This document shows positions 163 through 10,841 of a DNA stretch of 14,397 nucleotides, one piece after another. Every line of letters begins with the position of its first letter. Position 1 is the first letter of the stretch. Origin of the DNA: Candidatus Hydrothermarchaeales archaeon (GTDB lineage Archaea > Hydrothermarchaeota > Hydrothermarchaeia > Hydrothermarchaeales > JAZGAD01); contig JAZGAD010000040.1 of the NCBI GenBank assembly GCA_036444275.1, forward strand, positions 1 to 14,397, given 5' to 3'. The notes under the pieces were generated by a model. The model was not told the DNA's origin and did no database searches. It saw only the letters and a list, made by a program, of their open reading frames with translations. A program made the position numbers and the translations under genes.

Positions 163-996
163 TTATACTCCTATAAACCAGTACTTAAACAAGTCCACAA
201 ATGCTATTACAGTCATGGCGATAAATATCAGGAAAACCACTATGCCAAGTGCCCATATCCTCCTATTAAGAGCGTAGACAAAGCCCTGAATACGCCGCAT
301 AGGCATCTTATGCTCTATTAGCTCAGGTTTCTCGCGTTCTATCTCCTCAAGCTCCAGTGGGTGCATCTCCTCCATCTCCTCCATCTCCATCCTCCCATGC
401 AGGAATATCAGCGAACCAGGGAAGAACCTTGGGCTGTAGTGTACGGTATAGAAGTGCCCGAAGAACACTGTTAGAGTAGCGAGCAGTGCCTCGTAGCTAT
501 GAAGCATCCAGAATAGCTGGAATATCGGCAGGGTGATATACTGCAAGGCGATCTCCTTGAACCACATTACCAAGCCAGTAGCCGCTATAAGTGAGGTCCC
601 CCATGCAACTGACCAGTACTCCATCTTTTCCCCCCAAGTATAACGCCCCATTCTCGGAGGCTCATTAGTGAGTCTAAACGCATACCCTATCGAGCGAAGC
701 ATGTCGAATATGTCTTTCGGGGTAAACATTATAGGCCTCCTAAGGAGGGGTGCCCTATCTATAATTAAGTAGTAAAATATATGGACCAACCCAACTACGA
801 TAATACCCACGCCTGCGATGCGATGCAACAAGGCCCTATTTGCCAGTCCTCCAAGCAACTTCACGATCTCTATAGACCACCATGCCTGGGGATACTTCAA
901 CGGCATGCCTGTGACAACTAATAAAAAAAAGGTGAGAAACACTGCAATGTGTTGTATCCTCTGGAATACAGTAAGTCTCGCCACATAATCGCTCAT
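163..996 (-). CDS. Diheme cytochrome b membrane subunit (FdnI / Ni-Fe hydrogenase cytochrome b family, CbcL b-domain-like)
   Basis: QRIQH(16)...VTGMPLKY, LLH(58)RIAG, GRYTWGEKMEYW, TGLVMWF, MLH(166)SYEA, GH(181)FY, HPLE: four heme-b His ligands in transmembrane helices, plus an extra C-terminal TM helix. ATGA overlap with the upstream cytochrome c gene and a GGAGG RBS. Confidence 0.9.
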   Translation of the reverse strand: MSDYVARLTVFQRIQHIAVFLTFFLLVVTGMPLKYPQAWWSIEIVKLLGGLANRALLHRIAGVGIIVVGLVHIFYYLIIDRAPLLRRPIMFTPKDIFDMLRSIGYAFRLTNEPPRMGRYTWGEKMEYWSVAWGTSLIAATGLVMWFKEIALQYITLPIFQLFWMLHSYEALLATLTVFFGHFYTVHYSPRFFPGSLIFLHGRMEMEEMEEMHPLELEEIEREKPELIEHKMPMRRIQGFVYALNRRIWALGIVVFLIFIAMTVIAFVDLFKYWFIGV

Positions 997-2066
997 TCGC
1001 CTTCCTCCGTTCCTTCTTCTATTTCTCCTTCTTCCTCTTCCGTCCCTCTCGTTTTTTCTCCGATTTTATCTGACAAGTCAAGTATATTGAGCAGCAAGAT
1101 TATGAAGAGTACAATAGCTATGGTTTGGATGATATATAATTTCCCGAGTGTGAGTATGTGTATCGGTCCAATATAATAAGGCCTCGTCTTCTTCGTTGCA
1201 GTGCTTAGGAGTAGCGGCACTTTGGACAGGTCTAGGTGCATGGAGCCTGTTATCTTGGCTGTCAGCATCTTGTCTCCATGGCAGTTAGCGCAAATCTTTT
1301 TTACATTCGCTGGATTTACAGGGGACCTTGAATCAGCGCTTGGGAGTACATTGTGGGCATCTGAGCTTGTATCGGCATGGCACTCTCTACACGTCGGAAC
1401 ATCTTTATCTCCATGTTGGTAATACCTGCCGTGGAAGGTGTTGCGCAGGTATGATTCAACGGCATTCGAAATGCCATATTCATCTGCTACTTTTTTACTG
1501 GCGTGACATTCACTCTCTCCACGCCCACCACAGGTCTGGATGATGTTCTCTCTCGAGACCCATGAGCTGGCATCGTCTACGTCGGTGATAGCATGCGCTC
1601 CATGGCAGTCCACACAGACAGCAGGCTCTGCGGCACCTTCTCTTGCGATGCCGTGAACAAAGCTGACCTTAGGCGGATTTGCTATCTGAGTGCCCAGCGT
1701 ATAAAAACCTGGCTCCGCTCGTCCTGCTGCAGAGCCGTCCAGCTGATGGCACTTGGTGCAGACAGCTACATACTGCCTCTTCGTCAGCCCTTTTCTCAGC
1801 TTGGAGTGGAATACACCATGGCACTGGTCGCAGGTTACATCGTTTGCGGCATGTATGCTTTTACTCCATTCTCTCGGAGGAGTGTTCAGCCTGGTGTCAG
1901 GCTGGTTGCTGTGGCAGGTATAGCAGTAATCCCGGATATTCGTTGGATCAAGAGGAACTTCTTGGTCAATGCCTTGAGCATTTACAAGAGGAACTAGACT
2001 AATAATCAGAACTAAACATAGCACTAATTTGAGATTGCCACTTCTCATCACTCCCAGCCGTCTCAA
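993..2066 (-). CDS. Multiheme cytochrome c (6 CxxCH + 1 CX7CH) with signal peptide and C-terminal membrane anchor
   Basis: CYTCH, CDQCH, CTKCH, CVDCH, CGGRGESECH, CRECH, CANCH, with many spare His as distal ligands. N-terminal KLVLCLVLIISLVPLVNA|Q signal peptide; C-terminal TM LYIIQTIAIVLFIILLLNIL and an acidic tail. Start is TTG 2066 or ATG 2048. Confidence 0.93.
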   Translation of the reverse strand: MRRLGVMRSGNLKLVLCLVLIISLVPLVNAQGIDQEVPLDPTNIRDYCYTCHSNQPDTRLNTPPREWSKSIHAANDVTCDQCHGVFHSKLRKGLTKRQYVAVCTKCHQLDGSAAGRAEPGFYTLGTQIANPPKVSFVHGIAREGAAEPAVCVDCHGAHAITDVDDASSWVSRENIIQTCGGRGESECHASKKVADEYGISNAVESYLRNTFHGRYYQHGDKDVPTCRECHADTSSDAHNVLPSADSRSPVNPANVKKICANCHGDKMLTAKITGSMHLDLSKVPLLLSTATKKTRPYYIGPIHILTLGKLYIIQTIAIVLFIILLLNILDLSDKIGEKTRGTEEEEGEIEEGTEEGE

Positions 2067-2171: not shown

Positions 2172-2828
2172 CTAGTCGATATATTCCCCCAATCCTTTTT
2201 GTGCGGGGACCTTCTTTTCTGCTTCTAAATCGCTTAATATCCTGCTTACCTTCTTCCGTATGGAAGTTTGAACCTCTTCCAGGCTTTTGGAGGCGTCTAT
2301 CCTAGCAAAGATATCGTACTCCTTTTCCAAATCCAGATAGATCTCCCTTACCCTGACCAGGAATTCCTTTTTCTCGAAGTATTCCTTTTCCCGCATCGTA
2401 CCTCGCAATGAGTTCTTCGAGGATATTCGCTCAAGACCTGTCTCAGGTGGAACATCTAGTAATAGAACCATAGTTGGAGCTGGGGCAAACCTATTGATGT
2501 CCTTTACCCATCCTATACTCAGACCCTCCGCCCCTTGGTATGCGATGGAGGAGTAGAAGTACCTCTCTGTTATCACTACCTTCCCCGCCTCCAATTTCGC
2601 AGCTATCTCCTTGACGTGCTCGCTTCTATCAGCAGCAAACAATAAGGTTTCGGTCCTCGGGTCTAGACCACCTTCCTTTAGGAATTCCCTCAGGAGTTTG
2701 CCTATGGGCCCAGTGGTAGGTTCCCTAGTCAGGAAGGTATCATAGCCTTTCTCCTTTATCCACTTATTCAGCAACCTGCTATGGGCCCCCTTCCCAGAGC
2801 CATCGATTCCTTCCAAGGCTATGAACAT
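2172..2828 (-). CDS. tmk: Thymidylate kinase (dTMP kinase)
   Basis: FIALEGIDGSGK P-loop, TREP, LLFAADR, ERYFYSSIAYQG, P..V.LLDVPPE.GLERI, IDASKSLEEV. AGGTG RBS upstream. Confidence 0.92.
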   Translation of the reverse strand: MFIALEGIDGSGKGAHSRLLNKWIKEKGYDTFLTREPTTGPIGKLLREFLKEGGLDPRTETLLFAADRSEHVKEIAAKLEAGKVVITERYFYSSIAYQGAEGLSIGWVKDINRFAPAPTMVLLLDVPPETGLERISSKNSLRGTMREKEYFEKKEFLVRVREIYLDLEKEYDIFARIDASKSLEEVQTSIRKKVSRILSDLEAEKKVPAQKGLGEYID

Positions 2829-9854: not shown

Positions 9855-10841
9855 TTACTTTTTATATTTTGTGAAAGTCGCCTTAAGGCTCTCGGTGCGT
9901 AGGGAGATTTTTCTTTGCGGCTCTATGGTCATAAAGACCTCGCCATCTCTGATAATCCTGACTATGCCTCCGCTCTGGGACACAGTTATTCCAATAGCAT
10001 TCGTAGCTAAGCTCATCGCTGCCACAGCTGCATGCCTCGTCCCAAGGCCCCGGGGAACATCTATCTTGCTGGTGTCGACTGTAAGATACCTGCCGGCTGC
10101 CTCGATAACGCCGTCCTCGGTAATCACGAAGGCACCATCCAGCTGGGCGAGTTCCTTTATGGTCTCTTTGATATCTGGGCTTGTTATGATGCGTTCACCT
10201 ATGGCGTGCCCTTCGAAGGGATTCAGAATCATCTGTTTAGATTTCTCCATAACATTCTTGGAATCCCCTATCAAAAAGGCAGTTCCGATAAGTCTGCCTT
10301 CCCTTCCCTCCTTACCTATCTCTAGAGCGGTGTTCAGCACTGCTTCGAAGACCCCTTCCTTGATGTTTACTTCTCTGAGGAATTCGTAGAGGGCGAAATC
10401 CAGTTTTTCCTTTTCTAGATGATAGACAAAGATAGAGTCACCCTCCGATGTTAGGCTGGAACCTATCACCACTACTACGTCGTCCTGGTGCAGTATACCT
10501 TTGCTCATGGAGACCACTATAGCATCTTCGATCTGGGCCGACCTGGATGCACCTCTAGTCATAAGCTTCAGGGCATAGCTCTTTCTGGAGCGCCCATGTT
10601 TTTCTACATCCAGGAAGTCTATATTCAACGTGCTTATCATAGCCTTTTTGATTAAAGCATCAAAGGTTTCATCCTTGGCTGTAGCTGCGATCACAGGGAG
10701 ATCTGGGTCGTGCTCCATAACACCATCATATGCTACCCCCGTTTCGGTAAGGACTAGTATGGCGTTGGCCTTGATCTTGCCAGCTAATTCAACAGCTGAA
10801 TCTATGACGTCTCCTACAGTCTCCATTGCTATCACTATCAT
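9855..10841 (-). CDS. dacZ: Diadenylate cyclase, DacZ type (N-terminal pyruvate-kinase alpha/beta-like domain + DAC domain)
   Basis: N-terminal AVELA..IKANAILVLTETG...P.LPVIAAT (PK C-terminal-like). DAC motifs EGREGRLIGTAF, KELAQLDGAF, GLGTRHAA, VSQSGG. True start may be ATG 10826. Confidence 0.9.
   Translation of the reverse strand: MIVIAMETVGDVIDSAVELAGKIKANAILVLTETGVAYDGVMEHDPDLPVIAATAKDETFDALIKKAMISTLNIDFLDVEKHGRSRKSYALKLMTRGASRSAQIEDAIVVSMSKGILHQDDVVVVIGSSLTSEGDSIFVYHLEKEKLDFALYEFLREVNIKEGVFEAVLNTALEIGKEGREGRLIGTAFLIGDSKNVMEKSKQMILNPFEGHAIGERIITSPDIKETIKELAQLDGAFVITEDGVIEAAGRYLTVDTSKIDVPRGLGTRHAAVAAMSLATNAIGITVSQSGGIVRIIRDGEVFMTIEPQRKISLRTESLKATFTKYKK

Follow-up and report, generated by a model that had tools for sequence, protein, structure and literature searches.

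The subject of this analysis is the thymidylate kinase (Tmk) gene of a Candidatus Hydrothermarchaeales archaeon (GenBank assembly GCA_036444275.1), located on contig JAZGAD010000040.1 within the 14,397-nucleotide stretch of DNA that was analysed as a whole (hereafter, the window). The C-terminal tail of this enzyme is probably a functional PCNA-docking peptide, that is, a PCNA-interacting peptide (PIP) box. Four lines of evidence point to this assignment and support the preliminary description of this DNA, in which the tail had been proposed to be a PIP-box-type motif: the selective conservation of the motif, its location outside the kinase fold, its presence on established clamp clients encoded in the same genome, and a model of the complex that passed its controls. 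In each sequence-level feature tested, the tail matched the archaeal clients with C-terminal PIP boxes. This type of tail is itself known; what is likely to be new is that the PIP-box client carrying it is an enzyme of metabolism, a kinase. A search of the full-text literature on thymidylate kinase together with PCNA, PIP, archaea, and Thermococcus found no paper presenting Tmk as an archaeal PCNA partner, and the word "thymidylate" is absent from the main texts of the archaeal interactome papers PMC2962436 and PMC3820547, the supplementary prey tables of which might list Tmk. These results agree with the earlier remark that Tmk was not a described archaeal PCNA partner.

According to the list of open reading frames (ORFs) of the window, positions 2172-2828 on the minus strand are occupied by a single ORF of 218 residues. 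Judged by its profile matches, the product is a thymidylate (dTMP) kinase, scoring above both curated cut-offs: residues 5-190 were aligned with the Pfam family Thymidylate_kin (PF02223; 168.7 bits, cut-off 27), and the NCBIfam equivalog for dTMP kinase, TIGR00041, was matched with 172.8 bits (cut-off 83.25). It was the only Tmk match in a profile search of the genome (1.49 Mb, 81% complete), and its closest homologues carry the names Candidatus Hydrothermarchaeales and Candidatus Pyrohabitans. K13, D67, R68, R89, and some other residues are invariant in 66 orthologues; we take these to be catalytic residues, including the P-loop lysine and the D-R pair. The P-loop (residues 7-17; window 2778-2810, minus strand) reads GIDGSGKGAH, with GKG instead of GK[ST]. 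Hardly any of the 66 orthologues deviates at G14; in the displayed rows, the residue following it varies between T, A, and V. This GKG-type loop presumably resembles that of the adenylate-kinase type.

The C-terminus of Tmk reads ...IRKKVSRILSDLEAEKKVPAQKGLGEYID before the stop codon, and window positions 2175-2234 correspond to residues 199-218. Reading of the ORF confirmed the tail residues and the numbering (Q210, L213, Y216, and I217) given in the preliminary description. The gene is organised as follows:

2172-2828, minus strand: tmk coding sequence with the stop codon; thymidylate (dTMP) kinase, 218 residues (PF02223, TIGR00041)
2259-2828, minus strand: kinase domain, residues 1-190 (Pfam match at 5-190; predicted local distance difference test score, pLDDT, mostly >90, with a dip at 139-142)
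2202-2258, minus strand: residues 191-209, comprising the end of the extended last helix (183-206) and the short basic linker EKKVPA (assigned with DSSP on the AlphaFold2 model; variable among orthologues)
2178-2201, minus strand: PIP-box-like motif QKGLGEYI, residues 210-217, the proposed PCNA-docking peptide (orthologue alignment; complex model)
2172-2177, minus strand: last residue, D218, and the stop codon (position 218 is gapped in 45 of the 66 orthologue rows)

No ORF of at least 50 residues in another frame overlaps positions 2175-2234 in the window, and the next gene begins 105 bases downstream; therefore, the conservation of the tail is not borrowed from another gene.

Conservation was assessed in the 69 best homologues, which are 202-328 residues long and 53-73% identical. 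The alignment of orthologue C-termini, proposed as a check in the preliminary description, revealed that the motif positions are selectively conserved: a strict Q..[LIMV]..[FYW] pattern was found within the last 14 residues of 62 of the 69 proteins, while in three others leucine replaces the aromatic residue (QTRLEDLL type) and four have no glutamine (GKTLDEFII, KKTLDEFII, NAELTDFIK, and KGMDLRSY). The motif finishes 0-2 residues before the terminus in 62 of the 65 motif-bearing homologues. An alignment of 66 homologues (A2), from which two fragments (P0057 and P0060, both tailed) and a fusion protein (P0066, described below) were excluded, showed Q210 in 62 of 65 rows, [LIM]213 in 66 of 66, [DE]215 in 61 of 66, and [YF]216 in 63 of 66. 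The entropies of these columns were 0.34 (Q210), 0.65 (213), 1.49 (215), and 1.17 bits (216), while values of 1.7-2.3 bits were obtained for the x positions of the motif and 1.5-3.05 bits for the linker (residues 199-209). Fixed motif columns amid a diverged linker mark the tail as a short linear motif rather than a folded segment. At the eighth position of the motif, the 66 orthologues have F (17), L (12), or I (11), and this residue is absent in 15. As a decay control, we used a TGT-like protein of the same genome with the chance tail QDFLERY; the match is retained in 8 of its 28 complete relatives in the phylum and is lost because its glutamine drifts.

The tail is located past the end of the Pfam domain (residue 190), and its motif ends one residue from the terminus. 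For the AlphaFold2 model of Tmk, computed with the 66-row alignment, pLDDT averages 90.2 overall, and the last helix spans residues 183-206; pLDDT is below 50 for residues 207-212 and averages 51 for residues 211-218, and the tail (207-218) is left unpacked against the kinase domain. The whole stretch following SRIL had earlier been regarded as a flexible linker; however, since the last helix runs to residue 206 in the model, this holds only for residues of about 207-218.

The appended character of the tail is also evident from its distribution. Homologues ranked 70-120 (about 200 residues long, with about 91% of the query covered) are tailless, and the pattern was matched in 3 of these 51 proteins: one is the fusion protein P0071, and in the other two the match falls within the final helix of the kinase. 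When the 150 best cluster representatives (clusters formed at 50% identity) were examined, seven pattern matches were found, three of them on an appended tail: P0050, representing the lineage studied here, P0071, and P0252. Within the phylum, 38 genomes were searched and 35 yielded a Tmk match; 30 loci were read, giving 29 complete ORFs, of which 17 are tailed, 10 are tailless, and two have a degenerate tail (NNAELTDFFKN and NDKDLRYFL). A tree of the kinase core of these 29 proteins was poorly resolved, with 10 of the 26 inner branches open, and the tail label required 3 changes on it versus a mean of 9.5 for shuffled labels; on these data, the Tmk tail may have had a single origin in the phylum.

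The PCNA of this genome was identified by one PCNA_N match (81.9 bits, cut-off 20.3; L032:1501-2241, minus strand, 247 residues), and PCNA was detected in 34 of the 38 genomes of the phylum. Modelling of the complex with the cognate PCNA, another check proposed in the preliminary description, was performed with the 247-residue PCNA (alignment A1, consisting of 28 PCNAs of the phylum) and Tmk residues 183-218 (alignment A2). The score was 0.77, versus 0.20 for the best of three controls. Of 80 solved complexes, 58 attain the score mark, as do 2 of 110 mismatched pairs; this calibration is rough here, with our own alignments in use. Three runs had at least 92% of the contacts in common, and the pLDDT of the partner was at least 68. 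The modelled contacts connect Tmk residues 206-218 with PCNA residues 40, 43-47, 124-128, 223-224, and 239-246, which we take to be the canonical PIP site, made up of the interdomain connecting loop, the C-terminal strand, and the hydrophobic pocket. Across the 28 PCNAs, most of the contacted positions show little or no variation.

To place the motif in its genomic context, a crude set of 1517 ORFs (at least 80 residues, greedy non-overlapping choice) was scanned for Q..[LIMV]..[FYW] inside the last 14 residues. This terminal motif occurs in 15 of the 1517 ORFs, against 5.8 expected from its frequency in internal windows and 5.7 +/- 2.4 in shuffles of the last 40 residues (maximum 13 in 200 shuffles), the chance rate of the bare motif being about 0.4% of protein tails. 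The bare match in the single Tmk sequence is weak evidence and is not significant; the Tmk tail rises above chance because of its conservation, its appended position, and the other carriers of the motif in the genome. Nine of the 14 other ORFs encode replication or repair proteins:

PolB, ending in QESLKKWF (identified by Pfam)
PolD DP2, ending in QVSLSDF (identified by Pfam)
Fen1, ending in QSDLDAWFN (identified by Pfam)
RFC-like AAA+ protein, ending in QASLSEFGGGG (identified by Pfam)
Two Nre proteins, ending in QRRLEDF and QLRLEEFLKV
Mre11-like metallophosphoesterase, ending in QRKLGAFR (L066, plus strand, contig C19; NCBIfam match to Mre11)
XPD-like helicase, ending in QEEITWFHKH (L066, plus strand, contig C19, 3 kb from the Mre11-like gene)
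EndoQ homologue, ending in QTKLDGF (TIGR00375, 388 bits; PfuEndoQ 5zb8, E = 1e-124)

The Mre11-like and XPD-like proteins are encoded at L066:445-1659 and L066:3691-5466 on the plus strand of contig C19.

Most of these nine carriers belong to families with established C-terminal PIP boxes. In the review PMC4929162, the core archaeal PCNA clients are PolB, PolD, RFC, Fen1, and RNase H2, every one of them either a clamp loader or an enzyme with DNA or RNA as its substrate, and NucS and NreA are described as binding PCNA via C-terminal PIP motifs. For NucS, NreA, and EndoQ, these boxes have experimental support. PMC4858679 defines the PIP box as Qxxhxxaa, reports that the terminal box of Thermococcus kodakarensis EndoQ is needed for PCNA binding (KD 55 nM), and gives QRSITEFL and QRTLLQYI as validated EndoQ boxes.

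The remaining five motif-bearing ORFs encode a PfkB-family kinase, PurF, a TcmP-like protein, an unknown protein, and the TGT-like protein used above as the decay control. The TcmP-like protein (288 residues; L064:517-1383, plus strand; contig C49:4516-5382) ends in QSDLKDYL, and its match to the three-Cys-motif partner protein TcmP is sub-threshold (42.8 bits, cut-off 53). The unknown protein (336 residues, with QNIMGKFYEG) has only three relatives in the 38 genomes.

PIP-like motifs were also found on Tmk proteins of different architecture. Two metagenome proteins, P0066 (328 residues) and P0071 (327 residues), consist of a Tmk part (residues 9-194), 52-53% identical to the Tmk studied here, a NucS_C nuclease domain (47 and 58 bits, respectively, cut-off 24), and a terminal PIP motif (QSKLKKWE in P0066 and QIKLKEWD in P0071). 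By their domain content, these fusions combine Tmk, within a single polypeptide, with two elements of a known clamp client, its nuclease domain and its PIP. In addition, a sequence-distinct clade of Tmk-like proteins, 247-281 residues long, with long tails bearing PIP-like motifs, is present in other archaea:

L162:1501-2346 (approximate ORF end), metagenome-assembled genome (MAG) titled Methanobacteriota: QTSIMDFL, then NSSLEEFRKK at the terminus
L163:1501-2253 (approximate ORF end), Thermoplasmatales MAG: QTKVWDYFKGF at the terminus
L164:1501-2271 (approximate ORF end), Methanocellales MAG: KKLTFDDLLVVK at the terminus, including KKLTFDDLL
L165:1501-2244 (approximate ORF end), Methanoperedens MAG: SKTLHDYL at the terminus
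P0252, metagenome protein of the Tmk-like clade: QRALTDFF, and QKALTHF at the terminus

Taken as a PIP box, the last 8-9 residues of Tmk (QKGLGEYI-D) would act as a PCNA-interacting peptide presented on a short flexible segment behind the extended helix, and the leucine and tyrosine of the tail would insert into the hydrophobic pocket beneath the interdomain connecting loop of PCNA. An otherwise ordinary soluble dTMP kinase would in this way be tethered to DNA-loaded clamps. In the reading we prefer, the clamp would serve as a landing pad at which the conversion of dTMP to dTDP, as the last committed step towards dTTP, is coupled, in place or in time, to DNA synthesis or to repair patches, with a possible benefit being that dTTP is favoured over dUTP. 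Such a local supply of dTDP and dTTP is a plausible purpose of the tail; regulation of Tmk by clamp occupancy, or the assembly of several precursor enzymes by the clamp, would account for the tail just as well.

Several points weigh against a PCNA-docking role. Tmk does not act on DNA, and its diffusible product blurs any benefit of tethering. No replication or repair gene was found beside tmk in the window upon Pfam analysis of the neighbouring genes. The tail is dispensable for Tmk function, since it is missing in 10 and degenerate in two of the 29 Tmks of the phylum. The motif itself is not perfect: its eighth residue in this Tmk is isoleucine and not aromatic, 15 of the 66 orthologues end after a lone aromatic residue, and in one genus the aromatic residue is replaced by leucine (QTRLEDLL). 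The rows on which conservation was assessed are kin and are not independent row by row, and about a third of the terminal-motif ORFs in the genome are expected by chance. The high score of the complex may show the likeness of the tail to a PIP peptide and reflect a memory of solved complexes, because many PCNA-PIP complexes have been solved. Finally, PIP-like tails are not exclusive to PCNA: according to PMC8096248, primase binding by PolD DP2 depends critically on the PIP motif at its C-terminus.

The last of these points leads to the possibility that the tail docks a partner other than PCNA, such as primase, another replisome protein, or the enzyme that follows Tmk in the pathway. The resemblance of the tail to a PIP box would then go no further than a shared amphipathic peg. 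The binding of Tmk to PCNA is itself a modelled one, which leaves some room for this explanation; nevertheless, we consider it distinctly unlikely, given that the same motif is found on classical PCNA clients of the genome, the model puts the tail in the pocket of PCNA with the controls not exceeding 0.20, and the Tmk-NucS_C fusions bear a PIP of the NucS type. A role confined to the kinase itself, with the tail acting in cis or between Tmk subunits as an auto-regulatory or stabilising element, for example on the LID or the dimer interface, and with no relation to DNA, appears less probable still. In small kinases, an extension at the C-terminus can have a regulatory role, and the extension of the last helix to residue 206 in the AlphaFold2 model would suit such a role, but residues 207-218 are not confidently packed on the kinase domain (pLDDT about 50), the pattern of conserved Q/L/[DE]/[YF] with variable spacers is that of a linear motif, and tailless Tmks are common in the same phylum.

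We give very little credence to the explanation that the tail is a functionless lineage-specific extension which looks conserved through kinship. The frequency of the bare motif in random tails, the relatedness of the rows, and the loss or original absence of the tail in the 10 tailless Tmks could be accounted for in this way. However, the linker columns have diverged to 2-3 bits while the glutamine, the leucine, and the aromatic residue have stayed fixed, the chance motif of the TGT-like protein has decayed, with 8 of 28 relatives in the same set of genomes retaining it, and PIP-like tails recur on the distinct Tmk-like clade and on the NucS_C fusions. A proteasome-docking HbYX tail, in which the last three residues are hydrophobic, tyrosine, and any residue, was also considered and rejected, since Tmk ends in Y-I-D and its orthologues in GDF, EYF, EDFT, and similar sequences.

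Reading the Tmk tail as a PIP box, it can be compared with those of the archaeal clients carrying such boxes at the C-terminus (Fen1, PolB, PolD DP2, the RFC large subunit, NreA, NucS, and EndoQ), in which, as in Tmk, Qxxhxxa(a) forms the very end of the chain and is preceded by flexible or basic residues. The validated box of PfuEndoQ, given as QRTLLQYI in PMC4858679, ends in Tyr-Ile, like QKGLGEYI of Tmk. Unlike these clients, Tmk is a small-molecule kinase of nucleotide metabolism, the eighth residue of its motif is aliphatic or missing in many orthologues, and its binding to PCNA is a predicted one.

The idea of precursor enzymes physically coupled to the replication machinery is embodied in the dNTP synthetase complex of phage T4 and in the mammalian "replitase" hypothesis. 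These are multi-enzyme assemblies proposed from co-purification and kinetic coupling, whereas Tmk would offer a single clamp-docking peptide defined by its sequence. Human thymidylate kinase (TMPK) and ribonucleotide reductase are reportedly recruited to DNA damage sites, to go by the titles of works by Hu et al. from 2012 and Niida et al. from 2010 that are cited in PMC5333046. The idea is the same, namely that of dTTP-making enzymes at the sites of DNA synthesis, in the human case in order to limit dUTP incorporation, although the setting there is eukaryotic chromatin and here an archaeal clamp. To our knowledge, the recruitment of human TMPK does not rely on a PIP box on TMPK.

In view of the "replitase", the tails of the PfkB-family kinase and PurF may be taken as hints that several precursor enzymes gather at the replisome. 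The PfkB-family kinase (307 residues; L062:723-1646, minus strand; contig C33:25722-26645) ends in QRSIEHFF. It reached no NCBIfam equivalog cut-off, and its best solved relative is 3kd6, an uncharacterised PfkB kinase (5e-20). The terminal Q-x-x-[IL]-x-x-[FY] was present in all 28 complete ORFs from 30 loci of the phylum, as counted by eye. Of the 106 close homologues that are at least 295 residues long, 105 have it too; beyond these, identity falls to 29% and the motif is lost. Judged by its sequence, this protein gives the genome a further small-molecule kinase that ends in a clamp-type tail, and the tail is equally conserved. PurF, an amidophosphoribosyltransferase (L063:446-1852, plus strand; contig C47:49445-50851), ends in EQVSLPSFVDD, and the terminal Q..[LIMV]..[FYW] is retained in 25 of its 28 relatives. 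The motif follows the last conserved Cys motif at a distance of only about 8 residues and was expected to be a part of the general PurF fold, but the solved PurFs of Bacillus subtilis and Arabidopsis do not share it. The end of PurF may be either a PIP-like tail or a lineage-specific structural end.

Since one lineage has two or three nucleotide-related enzymes whose clamp-type tails are conserved, one could hypothesise that the clamp is a scaffold for DNA-precursor enzymes too, a clamp-anchored "replitase" comprising Tmk, the lineage-specific PfkB-family kinase, and perhaps PurF, in Hydrothermarchaeota and, independently, in other archaea. Nucleotide supply, chiefly of dTTP versus dUTP, would then be coupled to replication forks and repair patches. 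We regard this wider proposal as rather unlikely.

The genes surrounding tmk encode a multihaem cytochrome, a creatininase-family protein, a TRAM protein, a nucleotidyl transferase, and other proteins. Directly downstream of tmk (window 163-2066, minus strand) are encoded a multihaem cytochrome c of 357 residues, with several Pfam matches of the CXXCH type, and a membrane protein of 277 residues with no Pfam match. This pair is unusual for an archaeon and may be connected with electron transfer, either extracellular or at the membrane. Window 9855-10841 on the minus strand encodes a diadenylate cyclase of the DacZ type, in which a DAC domain is combined with PK_C / DacZ sensor-like domains, near genes for an archaeal S-adenosylmethionine synthetase, SepF, a ZPR1-like protein, and FKBP26.

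If the tail of Tmk does dock PCNA, the PCNA interactome of archaea would extend past the enzymes acting on nucleic acids. Whether precursor synthesis is physically coupled to the replisome has been asked for a long time and is poorly resolved, the evidence having been mostly indirect. If a lineage carries a clamp-docking peptide on its only Tmk, this would be a simple handle on the question that can be tested by mutation. Should the tail prove not to bind PCNA, it is still a short linear motif conserved on a housekeeping enzyme.

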